A DNA stretch of 64,000 nt, taken from positions 1 to 64,000 of IMG/VR virus record IMGVR_UViG_3300028797_006177. One strand, given 5' to 3'. Source of the stretch: a virus (lineage: Duplodnaviria; Caudoviricetes). The position numbers were made by a program, and so were the translations under genes. Shown piece after piece: positions 4,526 to 8,650 of the stretch (within the stretch, counting starts at the first letter, position 1; each line of letters begins with the position of its first letter). A model generated the notes under the pieces. The model saw nothing but the letters and a program-made list of their open reading frames with translations. It was not told the origin of the DNA and made no database searches.

Positions 4526-5227
4526 ATGATGATCGTTTGCATTGTAAACTATAACACCCAGCGGCTGACGGAGTGCGCCATACGCTCGCTATTGAAGCAC
4601 ACCACAGAGGCCCGCGTCGTTGTGTTCGACAACAGCGACCAGGGGGCGTTTGTGTTTCCGAGTGCTGAAGCACTCGGTACGGGAACGAAGATTGAAATCA
4701 TTGACAACACGAAGGGGCAGGTGATTGACTTCGAGGCGGAGCTTGCCAAGTACCCCAACAAGGAATACTCGCAGCGCAACCGCAGCAACTTCGGCTCGGC
4801 GAAGCACACTATGAGCATCGACTGGCTGATGGACTACTGCGCGGAGGGCTTCGTGCTGGCAGACAGCGACGTGCTGTTCCGTCAGGACATCACGCCCCTT
4901 GTCAAGCACAAGCGGGCTGCCGTCGGCTCGTTGCAGGTGAAGGATGGCATTCTGCTCTTGAAGCCTGTGCTCTGCTGGATTAACGTGCCGATGCTGAAAG
5001 AGCACCGCATCCGCTACTTCAACGGCGAGAAGATGTGGGCGCTCCATGACCGCTATCCCTACAACCGCTACGACACCGGCGCATGGTTCTATGAAGAACT
5101 CATCCGCCACCGCCTGTCCTTCTACGACACCGACATCGACCCCTACATCCTCCACTTCGGCCACGGCTCATGGAAGGAAAAAGACCCCGAACAATGGCTA
5201 AACGAAAACAAAGAATTATGGATATGA
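4526..5227 (+). CDS. Glycosyltransferase, GT2-like (GT-A fold)
   Basis: IVNYNT, VVVFDNSD, LADSDV (DxD) and YDTG motifs. Confidence 0.8.
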   Translation: MMIVCIVNYNTQRLTECAIRSLLKHTTEARVVVFDNSDQGAFVFPSAEALGTGTKIEIIDNTKGQVIDFEAELAKYPNKEYSQRNRSNFGSAKHTMSIDWLMDYCAEGFVLADSDVLFRQDITPLVKHKRAAVGSLQVKDGILLLKPVLCWINVPMLKEHRIRYFNGEKMWALHDRYPYNRYDTGAWFYEELIRHRLSFYDTDIDPYILHFGHGSWKEKDPEQWLNENKELWI

Positions 5228-7530
5228 ATAGGCAGAATAGCGTTGCCTTGTGCGCAATAGGGCGCATGGAGAACCAATACGCCCGTGAGTTTGTGCAGCA
5301 CTACCTTACGCTTGGCTTCGACCACCTCTATCTCTACGACAATGCCCACGAAGGCGAGGAGCATCTGGCCGACGTGCTTGGTGATTACATTGCCGACGGC
5401 AAAGTGACCATTATCACATGGACATACGCTCCGAATGATGCGCAGCGCATGGCATATAACGACTGCTACCACCGCTTCGGAGGCAAGCATACATGGATGG
5501 CGTTTTTCGACTTCGACGAGTTCCTTGTTATTCCGAGCGCTGAAGCACCCGGCACGGGGACGAACAAAGAAGCGCAAGGCACGGCGGCAGGCGATGACAT
5601 CCACACCTTCATGCAGCGTTACCGCGACTATCAGTGCCTGCTGGTGAACTGGATGGACTATACCGACGGAAACCTCATTGAGAACGACGGACGGCCATTG
5701 CAGGAGCGCTTCACTGCACCGATGCAGTACGACAAGACGGGCATTGGCGGTGACTACCCTGAGAACAATCATGCCAAAAGCATCGTCCGCACCGGCATCG
5801 CAGGACTTGCATTCAAGAACCCGCACGTCCCGTTAGAGCCGCGCCTGATCTGCTGCAACACCAAGGGCGAAAGATGCCGACAACAGCCGCGCATCCCATA
5901 CGACCATAGTATTGCCTACCTGAAGCACTTCACCACCAAGACAATCAGCGAGTGGCTGACGAACAAATGGGTGAAGGGCGCAGCAGGTTTGAGCTTTGAA
6001 AAGTTCCGAAAGGACTATGCCGAGTTTTTCTTCAAAATTAACGAGCGCACTCCGGAGAAGGAGGCATATATAGAGAAATGGAATAACAGGAAAGGACGTG
6101 TGGCTGCCGTTGCATTGGGCAGAATGGGCAACCAGATGTTCATTGCCGCAGCCGCTATGACATTTGCCCGCAGAACAGGCAGAGAGTTTATAGGACTGGT
6201 ATATAACCACGGACCTAAATTCGATTATGACTATCCGGAGGAGCAGTTCAAGACCGTGATGCGTAATGTGAAGTACATTGAGCCGAGCGAGGTGGCAGGA
6301 TTCTACCACATGCAGCAGGGCGAGTACGTCAGCAACGGATTCCCCGACATAAAAGAACCCGATGTGGTGCTCTGCGACTACTACCAGGACTTTACCTGCA
6401 TCGACTGCGATATCGCGATGTCGCTGTTTGCTCCATACGAAAGCATCAAGCAGGAAATACAGCAGCTCTATGGCGACCTATCGGACTGCATTTGCGTCAA
6501 TGTGCGTCGCGGCGACTACCTGCAGGTGCAGCTGCACGGCTTCCGTGTGCTCACCAAAGAGCAGATAGAGGATATGCTGGAGGAGCACTTCCTTCCTATG
6601 TATCGCGTCCTGTTTGTCAGCGATGACATTGAGTGGTGCCGTAATAATTTTACGGGAGAGCGTTATCTCTTCGCAAACAAGCCTTGCCATTGGAAACCAG
6701 AAATGGACCTCTACCTGATGACGCAATGCGGATCAGGCTGCATCATCTCCAATTCATCTTTCTCATGGTGGGGAGCATTCCTAAACGAGAAGTACGTCGA
6801 GGTCGTCTGCCCTTGGCCGTGGTTTGACAACCCCAAGCGACCGGCCATGACCAACCTTCTGCCTGCGTCTTGGATAAAGCATGGTAAGGAATGGAAAATC
6901 TGGTTGACGTACCACAAGCCCGAACTGATTCAAGCATACCAGCTTGACCGGCTCGGTAGTCACTACAATCTCTTTGATGCCCGGCAAGACCCAATGAACA
7001 GTTGCATGAGCGAGTTTGTCACAATCCTACATGTGTGGCTGAAAGGAGAGCGTTCAGACTATGTGGGCTTCTGCCACTACCGCCGAATACTGAATGTCAA
7101 CCATTTGCCACAGCGCGGTGAGTGCCAGGTGCTGAAGCGACTCCGCTTCCGTAACGGCGAGACGATGTACGAGCAGTACCAACGCTGCCACAATATCAAG
7201 GACTACGATCTCCTGCTCTCGCTCATAGACGGGCGCTTTGGCAAGGACAATCCTTATAGCAACTACCTGCGGACATCCAGGACGATGCTCCCAAACGTCT
7301 GCTTCCTCATGGCATGGAAGGACTTTATGCAGATGTGCGACTTCGTTTTCTCTTTTCTCGAAAGGTTTGCAGAGGAAACGGGCTGTTGCGATGACGTGGA
7401 GAAGTGGCACGCAAAGGCCGTAGCCGATTTTGGCGAAGAGGTTGCTCCCTACCAGCAACGTCTGTTGGGCTTCCTTGGAGAGCGCCTGGTGTCGGCATGG
7501 ATTTCAATTAACATGAAATGGTACATCTGA
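5218..7530 (+). CDS. Three-domain glycosyltransferase: GT2/GT92-like + GT11-like + DUF4422 (GT111-like)
   Basis: Domain 1: YLYDN, FFDFDEF, HAKSIV. Domain 2: GRMGNQMF, NVRRGDY, SDDIEWC, SNSSFSWWGA. Domain 3: YVGFCHYRR, RLLGFLGERL. Confidence 0.85.
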   Translation: MDMNRQNSVALCAIGRMENQYAREFVQHYLTLGFDHLYLYDNAHEGEEHLADVLGDYIADGKVTIITWTYAPNDAQRMAYNDCYHRFGGKHTWMAFFDFDEFLVIPSAEAPGTGTNKEAQGTAAGDDIHTFMQRYRDYQCLLVNWMDYTDGNLIENDGRPLQERFTAPMQYDKTGIGGDYPENNHAKSIVRTGIAGLAFKNPHVPLEPRLICCNTKGERCRQQPRIPYDHSIAYLKHFTTKTISEWLTNKWVKGAAGLSFEKFRKDYAEFFFKINERTPEKEAYIEKWNNRKGRVAAVALGRMGNQMFIAAAAMTFARRTGREFIGLVYNHGPKFDYDYPEEQFKTVMRNVKYIEPSEVAGFYHMQQGEYVSNGFPDIKEPDVVLCDYYQDFTCIDCDIAMSLFAPYESIKQEIQQLYGDLSDCICVNVRRGDYLQVQLHGFRVLTKEQIEDMLEEHFLPMYRVLFVSDDIEWCRNNFTGERYLFANKPCHWKPEMDLYLMTQCGSGCIISNSSFSWWGAFLNEKYVEVVCPWPWFDNPKRPAMTNLLPASWIKHGKEWKIWLTYHKPELIQAYQLDRLGSHYNLFDARQDPMNSCMSEFVTILHVWLKGERSDYVGFCHYRRILNVNHLPQRGECQVLKRLRFRNGETMYEQYQRCHNIKDYDLLLSLIDGRFGKDNPYSNYLRTSRTMLPNVCFLMAWKDFMQMCDFVFSFLERFAEETGCCDDVEKWHAKAVADFGEEVAPYQQRLLGFLGERLVSAWISINMKWYI

Positions 7531-7531
7531 T

Positions 7532-8650
7532 ATGAAGCACTACGACTATCTGATAGTTGGCTCCGGTCTCTACGGAGCCACCTTCGCACACCTTGCCACA
7601 CATCGCGGCAAGAAGTGCATGGTCATTGACCGACGACCGCACCTTGGCGGCAACCTGCGCTGCGAGGAAATAGAGGGGATTACGGTGCATAGCTACGGCC
7701 CGCACATCTTCCACACCTCCAACAAGCGCGTTTGGGACTTCGTGAACAGCATCACGCCATTCGAGCCGTTCATCAATATGCCACTGGCTCGCTATCGTTA
7801 CAAGTTATACAATCTGCCGTTCAACATGAACACCTTCTACCAAATGTGGGGCTGTACCACACCAGCAGAAGCCAAGTGCATCATCGAACAGCAGCGACAG
7901 GAGGCATTATGGCAGATGCAGGATGATGGCGCTACGGAGCCTCGCAACCTTGAAGAGCAGGCTTTGCTTTTGGTGGGGCGTGACATCTACGAGCAACTGA
8001 TAAAAGGCTATACCGAAAAGCAGTGGGGCAGACCGTGCAGCGAGCTGCCAGCCTTCATCATCCGCAGGCTGCCGGTGCGATATACCTTTGATAACAACTA
8101 TTTCAACGACCGCTATCAGGGCATACCGCTTCACGGATATAATAAGCTTATAGAAGGGCTACTGGAAGGTTCAGACACACAGACCAATGCAGACTTCTTT
8201 GACAACCGCAGCTATTGGGAGCGTTTTGCCGACAATATTGTATATACCGGCCCACTCGATCAGTATTTCGGATGTCAGCACGGCCACCTGGAATGGCGCT
8301 CATTGCATTTTGAAAATACTATTTTACCTATATCCGATTATCAGGGAAACGCGATAGTCAACTATACCGATGCCGATGTGCCTTATACCCGCATTATTGA
8401 GCACAAACATTTTGTAGGCTCTTATGCGGCACTTGATAAGACTGTTATCACCCACGAATATCCAGCCGAATATACAGCAGGCGCAGAACCATACTATCCC
8501 ATCAACGACGAGCGCAATACCAAAATGGCCGAACTCTATTACGAACTGGCGAAGAAAGAAACCCGCGTCCACTTCGGCGGTCGCCTGGCGGAATACAAAT
8601 ACTACGACATGGATGTTATCGTCGAAAAGGTGCTGGACTATTTCAAGTAA
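7532..8650 (+). CDS. glf: UDP-galactopyranose mutase
   Basis: YDYLIVGSGLYG FAD-binding motif, HSYGPHIFHT, YTEKQWG, EPYYPIND, GRLAEYKYYDMD. Confidence 0.97.
   Translation: MKHYDYLIVGSGLYGATFAHLATHRGKKCMVIDRRPHLGGNLRCEEIEGITVHSYGPHIFHTSNKRVWDFVNSITPFEPFINMPLARYRYKLYNLPFNMNTFYQMWGCTTPAEAKCIIEQQRQEALWQMQDDGATEPRNLEEQALLLVGRDIYEQLIKGYTEKQWGRPCSELPAFIIRRLPVRYTFDNNYFNDRYQGIPLHGYNKLIEGLLEGSDTQTNADFFDNRSYWERFADNIVYTGPLDQYFGCQHGHLEWRSLHFENTILPISDYQGNAIVNYTDADVPYTRIIEHKHFVGSYAALDKTVITHEYPAEYTAGAEPYYPINDERNTKMAELYYELAKKETRVHFGGRLAEYKYYDMDVIVEKVLDYFK

Follow-up and report, generated by a model that had tools for sequence, protein, structure and literature searches.

A 64,000-nt stretch of tailed-phage DNA (hereafter the window), the first 64 kb of the 103,960-bp IMG/VR record IMGVR_UViG_3300028797_006177, carries at positions 4526-8650 a cluster of three genes that encodes four soluble glycosyltransferase (GT) domains, three of them fused in one polypeptide, and an intact UDP-galactopyranose mutase (Glf). 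We tentatively favor the explanation that these enzymes would glycosylate virion proteins in the cytoplasm late in infection, with a glycan that contains galactofuranose (Galf) and probably fucose (Fuc). The phage is temperate and belongs to rumen Prevotella-type bacteria, because the record carries an integrase and is classed in IMG/VR as a provirus (completeness 100%), and because its relatives in GTDB are all Bacteroidaceae, Prevotella or Bacteroidales metagenome-assembled genomes (MAGs) from the rumen or the herbivore gut.

A three-domain glycosyltransferase, its partner enzyme and Glf

A first, sequence-only reading of this DNA had described three adjacent, translationally packed genes, and the open reading frames (ORFs) and the junctions between them bear this out. 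All three ORFs lie on the plus strand: 4526-5227 (233 residues), 5170-7530 and 7532-8650 (372 residues). The first gene ends in a TGA (5225-5227) that shares bases with an ATG at 5224 (ATGA), and a second ATG is found at 5218. Initiation at 5218 or 5224 gives a fusion protein of 768-770 residues, and we place the start at one of these codons because residues conserved in 33 homologues precede the later methionine of the database call (754 residues, P0004). The fusion gene stops at 7528-7530, immediately before the glf start at 7532. The GC content of the cluster is unremarkable, and a small Cys-rich ORF follows, so that the same-strand gene array continues without a gap beyond glf. The term "early operon", used in the sequence-only reading, proved to be an assumption, as no promoter or terminator signal exceeded chance: scans for sigma-70-type promoters, terminators and the Bacteroidetes -7 box were all at chance level, and the four copies in the window of a phage promoter motif, GTCCG-N18-23-TAnnTTTG, all lie away from the cluster.

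The second gene was confirmed by Pfam, profile and fold searches to encode the predicted fusion of about 770 residues, composed of GT92-like, GT11 and DUF4422 domains. Pfam returned GT92 (E-value 4.8e-18), Glyco_tranf_2_4 (1.5e-11), GT11 (6.5e-18) and DUF4422 (2.6e-13), and family-level support of the HMM kind is in this way available for GT92, GT11, DUF4422 and, in the third gene, GLF. When the fusion was used as a single-sequence phmmer query against the PDB no match was obtained, but a family profile built from 33 fusion homologues matched WbbM in its GT111 domain (6u4b, 2.6e-13) and GalS1, a galactan synthase of family GT92 from plants (8d3t, 6.5e-6). A fold search also produced matches: in the AlphaFold2 model (mean predicted local distance difference test score, pLDDT, 85), three separate parts correspond to GalS1, to NodZ/FUT1/FUT8 and to WbbM.

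The GT92 domain scores 66.1 bits with PF01697 (cut-off 23), the Pfam alignment covering positions 18-140 of 249, the N-terminal half of the model only. Its best structural match is GalS1 (Foldseek, 5e-8), and in the metal-site motif FDFDE residues D98 and E99 are invariant and D96 is nearly so. The GT11 domain scores 65.4 bits with PF01531 (cut-off 23.9), matches the glycosyltransferase family phrog_2644 (3.8e-31) and has the fold of NodZ, FUT1 and FUT8. Its motifs VNVRRGD (V425-D431) and NS.FSWWGA (N510-A518) are invariant in 33 sequences except at position 512, and an Asn occupies the place where a His usually precedes RRGD. These features suggest that the GT11 domain is probably of the fucosyltransferase type. 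No gene for GDP-fucose synthesis was found among the ORFs scanned against Pfam, a scan that covered part of the ORFs, and the host would therefore have to supply this donor.

The C-terminal domain matches DUF4422 (PF14393, 2.6e-13). The family profile aligns it with residues 62-243 of 6u4b, WbbM's N-terminal domain (2.6e-13), with the HYRR motif in register, Foldseek retrieves the same structure (1.4e-6), and H618, Y619 and R621 are invariant. DUF4422 corresponds to family GT111, of which WbbM, a Galf transferase, is the sole characterized member (PMC12269835); together with the 6u4b match, this backs the assignment of the domain as a GT111 Galf transferase of the WbbM kind. No other family is known to pair with Glf in such a manner, and the adjacency of glf supports, but does not prove, the predicted transfer of Galf by this domain.

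The GT92-GT11-DUF4422 architecture is not peculiar to this phage. In a large protein database it forms ~50 clusters (at 90% identity) that are 47-86% identical to the fusion; several of these are encoded on contigs of 80-115 kb, and a few on contigs of 300-430 kb, presumably in integrated form. Degeneration of the catalytic residues, a concern raised by the sequence-only reading, was checked for and not seen: the homologous fusions show no variation in their DxD-type, RRGD and HYRR motifs. Such invariance at 47-86% identity across ~50 clusters indicates purifying selection on the fusion, as judged from these alignments. Homologues of ~1000 residues carry a second copy of GT92; we had considered them as fusions with the 233-residue enzyme, which was ruled out once the extra domain was recognized as a GT92 duplicate. 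Two-domain forms are numerous and include GT92+DUF4422, GT92+GT2 and GT92+Stealth. No GenBank phage record covers at least 80% of the fusion, the best covering 37%; partial matches are to the GT92 part only in Prevotella Lak megaphages, at 31-33% identity, and to the GT11 part in cyanomyophages. With the fusion as query, an exact-word scan of GTDB genomes gave no match, and a profile scan of IMG/VR was dominated by generic GT11 genes.

The 233-residue product of the first gene had been labeled GT2-like. That it is a glycosyltransferase of the GT-A fold stands, and the GT2 identity was ruled out, the model being closest to the retaining GT8/GT24 enzymes. The protein has no Pfam or PHROG match, and single-sequence phmmer found no match in the PDB. 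The alignment of its family nevertheless has a classic GT-A N-terminus and invariant IVNYNT, FDNSD, DSD (a DxD motif), YDTG and GSW, and the AlphaFold2 model (pLDDT 88) adopts the GT-A fold. The best Foldseek matches were LARGE1 (2.4e-7), LgtC (5.7e-6), UGGT, GlyE and glycogenin, with template modeling scores of ~0.45-0.62, and a resemblance to the Legionella enzyme LtpM was also detected. The GT8 model (PF01501) does not match the protein, although a few members of its family carry a precomputed PF01501 match. On the strength of the model we describe the enzyme as GT8-like by fold and not as a GT8 member, because the query lacks a PF01501 match while its fold and DSD motif are nonetheless GT8/GT24-like. 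The family is large, phage-borne and without a Pfam model of its own: we collected 1202 homologues, the best 120 of these 1202 lie on contigs of at most ~122 kb, and its matches in GTDB are all in phage-like contexts within MAGs.

The third gene encodes a Glf that matches the Pfam model GLF over profile positions 2-203 of 203 (4.9e-77) and NAD_binding_8 (7e-21), with an N-terminal FAD-binding Rossmann motif. It aligns end to end with E. coli Glf (1i8t, residues 4-368, phmmer 2.1e-135) and belongs with phrog_9677 (5e-122). The active-site segments RRLPVR, YTRIIEHKHF, EPYYP and GRLAEYKYYDM are conserved in alignments to 1i8t and 4mo2. At one position the phage enzyme reads HIFHTS and 4mo2 HIFRTS, i.e. 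His instead of Arg; we take this site to be a marker, Arg being the residue that marks the UDP-N-acetylgalactosamine mutase of C. jejuni. Glf thus appears intact and, judged by its sequence, should convert host UDP-galactopyranose (UDP-Galp) to UDP-galactofuranose (UDP-Galf). The presence of glf in phages is already known, from 86 phage records. With this, the proposed set of four GT domains and an intact Glf, all soluble, is upheld.

A Stealth gene, related cassettes and serine-rich tags

A fifth transferase, missed in the sequence-only reading, is encoded beyond the window. Among the structural-region genes, at record positions 69931-70833 on the minus strand (L017:5931-6833), lies a gene for a Stealth protein of 300 residues (Stealth_CR2, 3.9e-26). 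L-numbers here denote loci: L017 and L018 come from the same record, and those in the range L099-L142 are relatives, drawn from IMG/VR, JGI and GTDB, or other contigs. A hexose-1-phosphoryl transferase activity has been proposed for Stealth proteins, and the original description of the family cites phosphoglycosylation of serine in Dictyostelium (PMC1285062). The gene for a 248-residue protein beside Stealth (69119-69865) was considered as a further GT and set aside, since its product has no similarity to any GT.

The order of genes in the relatives connects Stealth and the GTs with morphogenesis. One set of loci (L110-112, L113, L114, L125, L127, L128, L130 and L131) shares the order tape measure, Stealth, variable GTs, a relative of the 233-residue enzyme and structural-region genes. 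The variable middle consists of a GT92-like protein, a protein with a phosphoribosyltransferase-like domain, or a 750-residue protein of no known family, and the genes that follow are homologues of the post-portal protein, of a 526-residue coiled-coil protein and of a 425-residue InlB-repeat protein. In L113, Stealth, GT92 and the 233-residue type are joined in one protein of 806 residues. In L100 and L101, whose structural proteins are 42-93% identical to those of the window phage, the genes for the portal and the post-portal protein are followed by a small gene, then by Stealth and a four-domain GT92-GT92-GT11-GT111 enzyme. L135 and L139, from another lineage, encode a 233-residue-type enzyme fused to DUF4422 immediately upstream of a Pfam Phage_portal gene. 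Neighboring cassette ORFs of several relatives, as called, overlap or abut, leaving no room for expression signals of their own. The order exonuclease, methyltransferase, GT is found only in the window phage and in its 82%-identical relative L099. To judge from these gene orders, the cassette is a mobile, domain-shuffled island that in most lineages belongs to what appear to be morphogenesis operons.

Further variants of the cassette were noted. A protein with a Pribosyltran domain, for which we know of no role in glycosylation cassettes, replaces the GT92 gene beside the 233-residue homologue at L125:9123-10004, L127:8638-9996 and L138:9111-9983. Proteins of 750-760 residues at L130:10001-12262 and L131:9980-12262 have an N-terminus like the 233-residue enzyme and ~500 further residues without a Pfam match; both follow Stealth, and in L130 a DUF4422 gene lies on the other side. 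A 666-residue protein of the window phage (49562-51562, minus strand) has no family match, and its homologues adjoin GT92-like or 233-residue-type genes in L102 and L142, two unrelated short contigs, which suggests that it is another recurrent neighbor of the cassette.

Three structural-region proteins of the window phage bear Ser-rich acidic tags (Table 1). Homologues of the post-portal protein in L113, L125, L127, L130 and L131 contain other Ser-rich acidic inserts, and Ser-rich acidic stretches form the tails of the InlB-repeat homologues in L100, L113 and L127 and of a 401-residue protein in L106. The link between Ser tags and the cassette is suggestive, not strict. Poly-Thr tracts were seen in proteins of ~590 residues in a different phage lineage (L107, L109, L115 and L126).

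Table 1 Features of the glycosylation cluster, its flanking genes and the candidate acceptor tags in the window
Feature	Position	Strand	Basis or remark
N6/N4 DNA methyltransferase	3675..4493	+	Pfam N6_N4_Mtase 8.1e-34; 32-nt gap to 4526; outside the sugar pathway
233-residue soluble GT-A glycosyltransferase, GT8-like by fold	4526..5227	+	Family alignment, AlphaFold2, Foldseek
GT92-like GT-A domain, ~residues 1-290 of the fusion	5224..6093	+	Pfam, profile, Foldseek
GT11 (fucosyltransferase-superfamily) domain, ~residues 291-553 of the fusion	6094..6882	+	Pfam, PHROG, Foldseek
DUF4422/GT111 domain, predicted galactofuranosyltransferase, ~residues 554-768 of the fusion	6883..7530	+	Pfam, profile, Foldseek
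glf, UDP-galactopyranose mutase, full length	7532..8650	+	Pfam GLF, phmmer, PHROG
Small Cys-rich ORF, ~79 residues	8658..8897	+	Sequence read; starts 8 nt past glf; motif C.CC ... C..C
GSDSSEGSDSSEGED tag in 917-residue tail-region protein	38315..38359	+	Candidate acceptor site, inferred
SDSLSDSSSE C-terminal tail of 354-residue protein upstream of the tail protein targeted by the diversity-generating retroelement	44517..44546	+	Candidate acceptor site, inferred
DSDSSEGED tag in variable insertion loop of 383-residue post-portal protein (DUF6712-like)	56550..56576	+	Candidate acceptor site, inferred

Acceptor of the predicted glycan

Under the explanation that we tentatively favor, all of the enzymes would act in the cytoplasm of the infected cell and would build an oligosaccharide of several sugars, with Galf and probably Fuc and galactose, on the proteins of the particle, either ahead of assembly or while it proceeds. 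Serines would first receive a sugar 1-phosphate from Stealth, the likely sites being Ser-rich acidic tags such as SDSSEGED and SDSLSDSSSE, and the GT8-like, GT92, GT11 and GT111 domains would extend the primed chain, with UDP-Galf supplied by Glf. Fusion of three domains may channel successive steps, and the shuffling of partner domains would generate lineage-specific glycan coats. A repeating Galp-Galf extension is possible by analogy, because a GT8-like enzyme, GT111 and Glf together are the enzyme set of Klebsiella galactan I synthesis. A more elaborate form of the proposal, which we rate as unlikely, is a modular "glyco-island" in which Stealth would start a phosphodiester-linked sugar on the Ser tags and swappable GT8-like, GT92, GT11, GT111 and phosphoribosyltransferase-like domains would extend it, in this phage with Galf and fucose and with a Glf of its own.

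Several points weigh against virion proteins as the acceptor. The glycan and its acceptor are predictions from sequence, fold and synteny. In both the window phage and L099, the cluster is located outside the structural block, in an accessory and anti-defence array, a position that would equally suit a moron or a DNA-related function, and Stealth is 61 kb away from it; linkage of GTs to structural genes (behind the tape measure, beside the portal) was seen in relatives and not in the window phage. Stealth and GTs occur in L112, L114 and L128 with no Ser tag within the available stretch. For the tag-bearing proteins, ESM Atlas returned DUF6712-like for one and no other name, making their membership of the virion only putative.

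The sequence-only reading had contrasted modification of a cytoplasmic acceptor with classical O-antigen conversion. A phage-encoded Gtr-like or Wzx/Wzy-like membrane route is excluded: no ORF with at least four hydrophobic segments exists in the 103,960-bp record, the GTs have no such segment at all, and the reported lack of flippase, polymerase and GtrABC genes accordingly holds for the whole record. The lack of a flippase is still compatible with modification of a host glycan, because soluble GTs such as WbbM use lipid-linked acceptors that are exported by host machinery. The soluble GTs might thus modify undecaprenyl-linked intermediates of capsule, lipopolysaccharide or O-glycan at the inner face of the membrane, the host would export a Galf/Fuc glycan, and superinfection would be blocked or recognition of the lysogen altered. 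We consider such remodeling of the host envelope possible, if somewhat unlikely. It would suit a temperate phage with an integrase and provirus classification, whose cluster lies near the prophage end opposite the integrase among accessory and anti-defence genes, and GT11, GT111, GT8 and Glf are enzymes characteristic of O-antigen and capsule loci in bacteria. TarP, the prophage-encoded soluble teichoic-acid glycosyltransferase of S. aureus, counts as a precedent. WbbM with Glf makes galactan I without a membrane anchor of its own (PMC12269835), and a role in modifying the capsule was suggested by Benler et al. for another gut-phage GT (PMC8008677). Against these considerations, genes for an initiating phosphoglycosyltransferase, a flippase and a polymerase are absent from the phage, a set of four or five transferases has the look of de novo synthesis and not of side-branch addition, and the 233-residue family is phage-borne by its contig sizes and GTDB contexts. 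Moreover, both in the cluster and in the cassettes of relatives the genes leave no space between them and no separate promoter or terminator is detectable, and in the relatives the cassette lies inside a tape-measure or portal operon, which a prophage should silence.

The choice of cytoplasmic acceptor had been left between virion protein and DNA, and it is the former that the synteny of the relatives favors. A role in escaping restriction through sugars attached to phage DNA bases, known from T-even phages, RB69 and DLP3, appears very improbable here. To our knowledge, GT92, GT11, GT111 and GT8-like enzymes are not among the known families of DNA glycosyltransferases, and the presence of several N6/N4 methylases suggests protection of ordinary bases. 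The cassettes of relatives, again, stand in morphogenesis operons. No ThyA (PF00303), ThyX (PF02511) or TET/JBP (PF12851) homologue was detected in the 104-kb record at E<=0.1, so that there is no known route to a hydroxylated base acceptor; PF00303 and PF02511 were recovered in several control genomes, and PF12851 in one, below the cut-off, which makes its absence the weaker result. What speaks for DNA is that the cluster comes directly after an HU-like gene and a DNA methylase, in an island where genes for DNA modification and anti-defence abound, and that a 2026 paper links a phage Glf to a proposed DNA-glycosylation cluster in Rhizobium phage RL38J1 and to glycosylated 5-hydroxycytosine in Pootjesviridae (PMC13326640). 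There, as here, the phage UDP-galactopyranose mutase adjoins phage GTs, but the pathway needs a thymidylate-synthase-like 5-hydroxydeoxycytidine monophosphate (5hodCMP) synthase and nucleotide kinases (PMC13326640), and a thymidylate-synthase-like gene is absent here. Taken together, base glycosylation is unlikely on the gene content.

Other acceptors are conceivable, and we regard them as improbable: a host protein, modified for takeover or anti-defence in the manner of GT8-like effectors, or a free or lipid-linked galactan-type polymer made by a split WbbM-like pair. The model of the 233-residue enzyme does resemble protein-modifying GT8/GT24 enzymes and Legionella LtpM, and a Tad2-like anti-defence gene is nearby, yet nothing specific points to a host target. 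The combination of GT8-like enzyme, GT111 and Glf is that of WbbM with Glf, and the 233-residue type and DUF4422 are fused in L135 and L139, yet the phage has no exporter for a polymer. Both variants leave the link to Stealth and to structural operons unexplained.

Genomic setting, known systems and implications

The cluster starts ~4.5 kb from the left end of the record, which is trimmed, directly past the DNA methylase gene and with an HU-like gene upstream. The same-strand array downstream (14530-16095 and 19307-22073, plus strand) encodes an RNA ligase, a Tad2-like protein (Thoeris anti-defence), a weak match to radical S-adenosylmethionine enzymes and a protein with a 3'-phosphoadenosine-5'-phosphosulfate (PAPS) reductase domain, and has the appearance of an island for anti-defence and nucleic-acid modification. 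The genome has three genes for N6/N4-type DNA methyltransferases, at window positions 3675-4493 and 31536-32273 and at L018:7841-8587 (minus strand). Genes typical of tailed phages include those for a 1668-residue tape-measure protein, a portal, a tail protein and the reverse transcriptase of a diversity-generating retroelement. The reverse transcriptase (phrog_1423, 46437-47318, plus strand) adjoins the tail protein phrog_5302 (44581-45864, plus strand).

Both ends of the record coincide with gene borders. The right end carries a Bacteroidetes-type tyrosine integrase, ParA, a Rep3-like initiator and Mfa2/FimA-type fimbrillins. A search for att-type repeats between the record ends revealed only a simple AAGTGAAA-type repeat, and megablast found no match among GenBank phages. 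A tRNA-Pro(TGG) gene, unusually long at 90 nt, lies at 2472-2561 (plus strand) between the exonuclease and the HU-like gene, in a stretch absent from L099; with the integrase located at the opposite end, this gene is unlikely to be the attachment site. Near the integrase end, in the segment L018:13607-15478 (record 97607-99478), the ORF L018:14615-15478 matches Mfa2/FimA-type fimbrillins, and a neighboring ORF of 320 residues has no Pfam match and has homologues at the equivalent place in the GT-carrying loci L135, L137 and L139.

Glycosylation of virions by phage enzymes has an accepted precedent in the O-glycosylation of mycobacteriophages of the Che8, Corndog and Myrna type, as reportedly described by Freeman et al. 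in 2023. In those phages soluble phage-encoded GTs are thought, or have been shown, to glycosylate proteins of capsid and tail within the cytoplasm, and short tags of structural proteins serve as acceptors, which have their counterpart here in the candidate tags. The present system differs in its host (Bacteroidota, not Actinomycetota), its GT families, its three-domain fusion, its own glf and its Stealth gene, and it is known from its genes alone. Experimentally established enzymes of chlorovirus PBCV-1, A064R and A111/114R, are cytoplasmic chains with three catalytic domains that assemble the glycan on the capsid protein of the virus itself. They share with our proposal the use of virus-encoded multi-domain enzymes independent of host membrane glycosylation machinery, and differ in belonging to a eukaryotic giant virus, in their unrelated domain families and in their N-linked glycans. 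Glycan-changing modules of temperate phages are also familiar from Gtr and TarP. GtrA (a flippase), GtrB (a bactoprenol glucosyltransferase) and the polytopic serotype-specific Gtr are membrane proteins, which have no equivalent here, whereas TarP is a single GT expressed in lysogens, in contrast to four domains without a promoter signal of their own. A biochemical parallel by enzyme set, WbbM/Glf of Klebsiella pneumoniae O2a, likewise combines a soluble GT111, a GT8-type enzyme and a UDP-Galp mutase; WbbM is a GT111-GT8 fusion that polymerizes on a primer linked to undecaprenyl diphosphate, with export by Wzm/Wzt (PMC12269835). In the phage, the fusion partners of GT111 are instead GT92 and GT11, a gene of its own encodes the GT8-like enzyme, and no exporter is encoded. 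The component families and virion glycosylation in mycobacteriophages were known before; notable here are the joining of three GT domains in one enzyme, donor synthesis by the phage itself, the Stealth partner and the shuffling of domains.

The three-in-one enzyme and its shuffled relatives constitute a natural library of soluble fused GTs for glyco-engineering, and the cluster offers a second, independent test case for the poorly characterized family GT111. If the host surface were remodeled instead of the virion, the cluster would represent a new, flippase-independent form of lysogenic conversion in the dominant rumen genus. The glyco-island, if true, would be the first viral protein phosphoglycosylation known and the first virion glycosylation outside actinobacteriophages, with glycan "serotypes" arising through domain shuffling. 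Should virion glycosylation be correct, Bacteroidales phages of the gut and rumen would be coated with glycans, which would affect their adhesion to mucus and feed particles, their recognition by the immune system and by lectins, their stability and the characterization of phage preparations. Galf is absent from mammals and immunogenic, and such a coat would be especially relevant to immune recognition.

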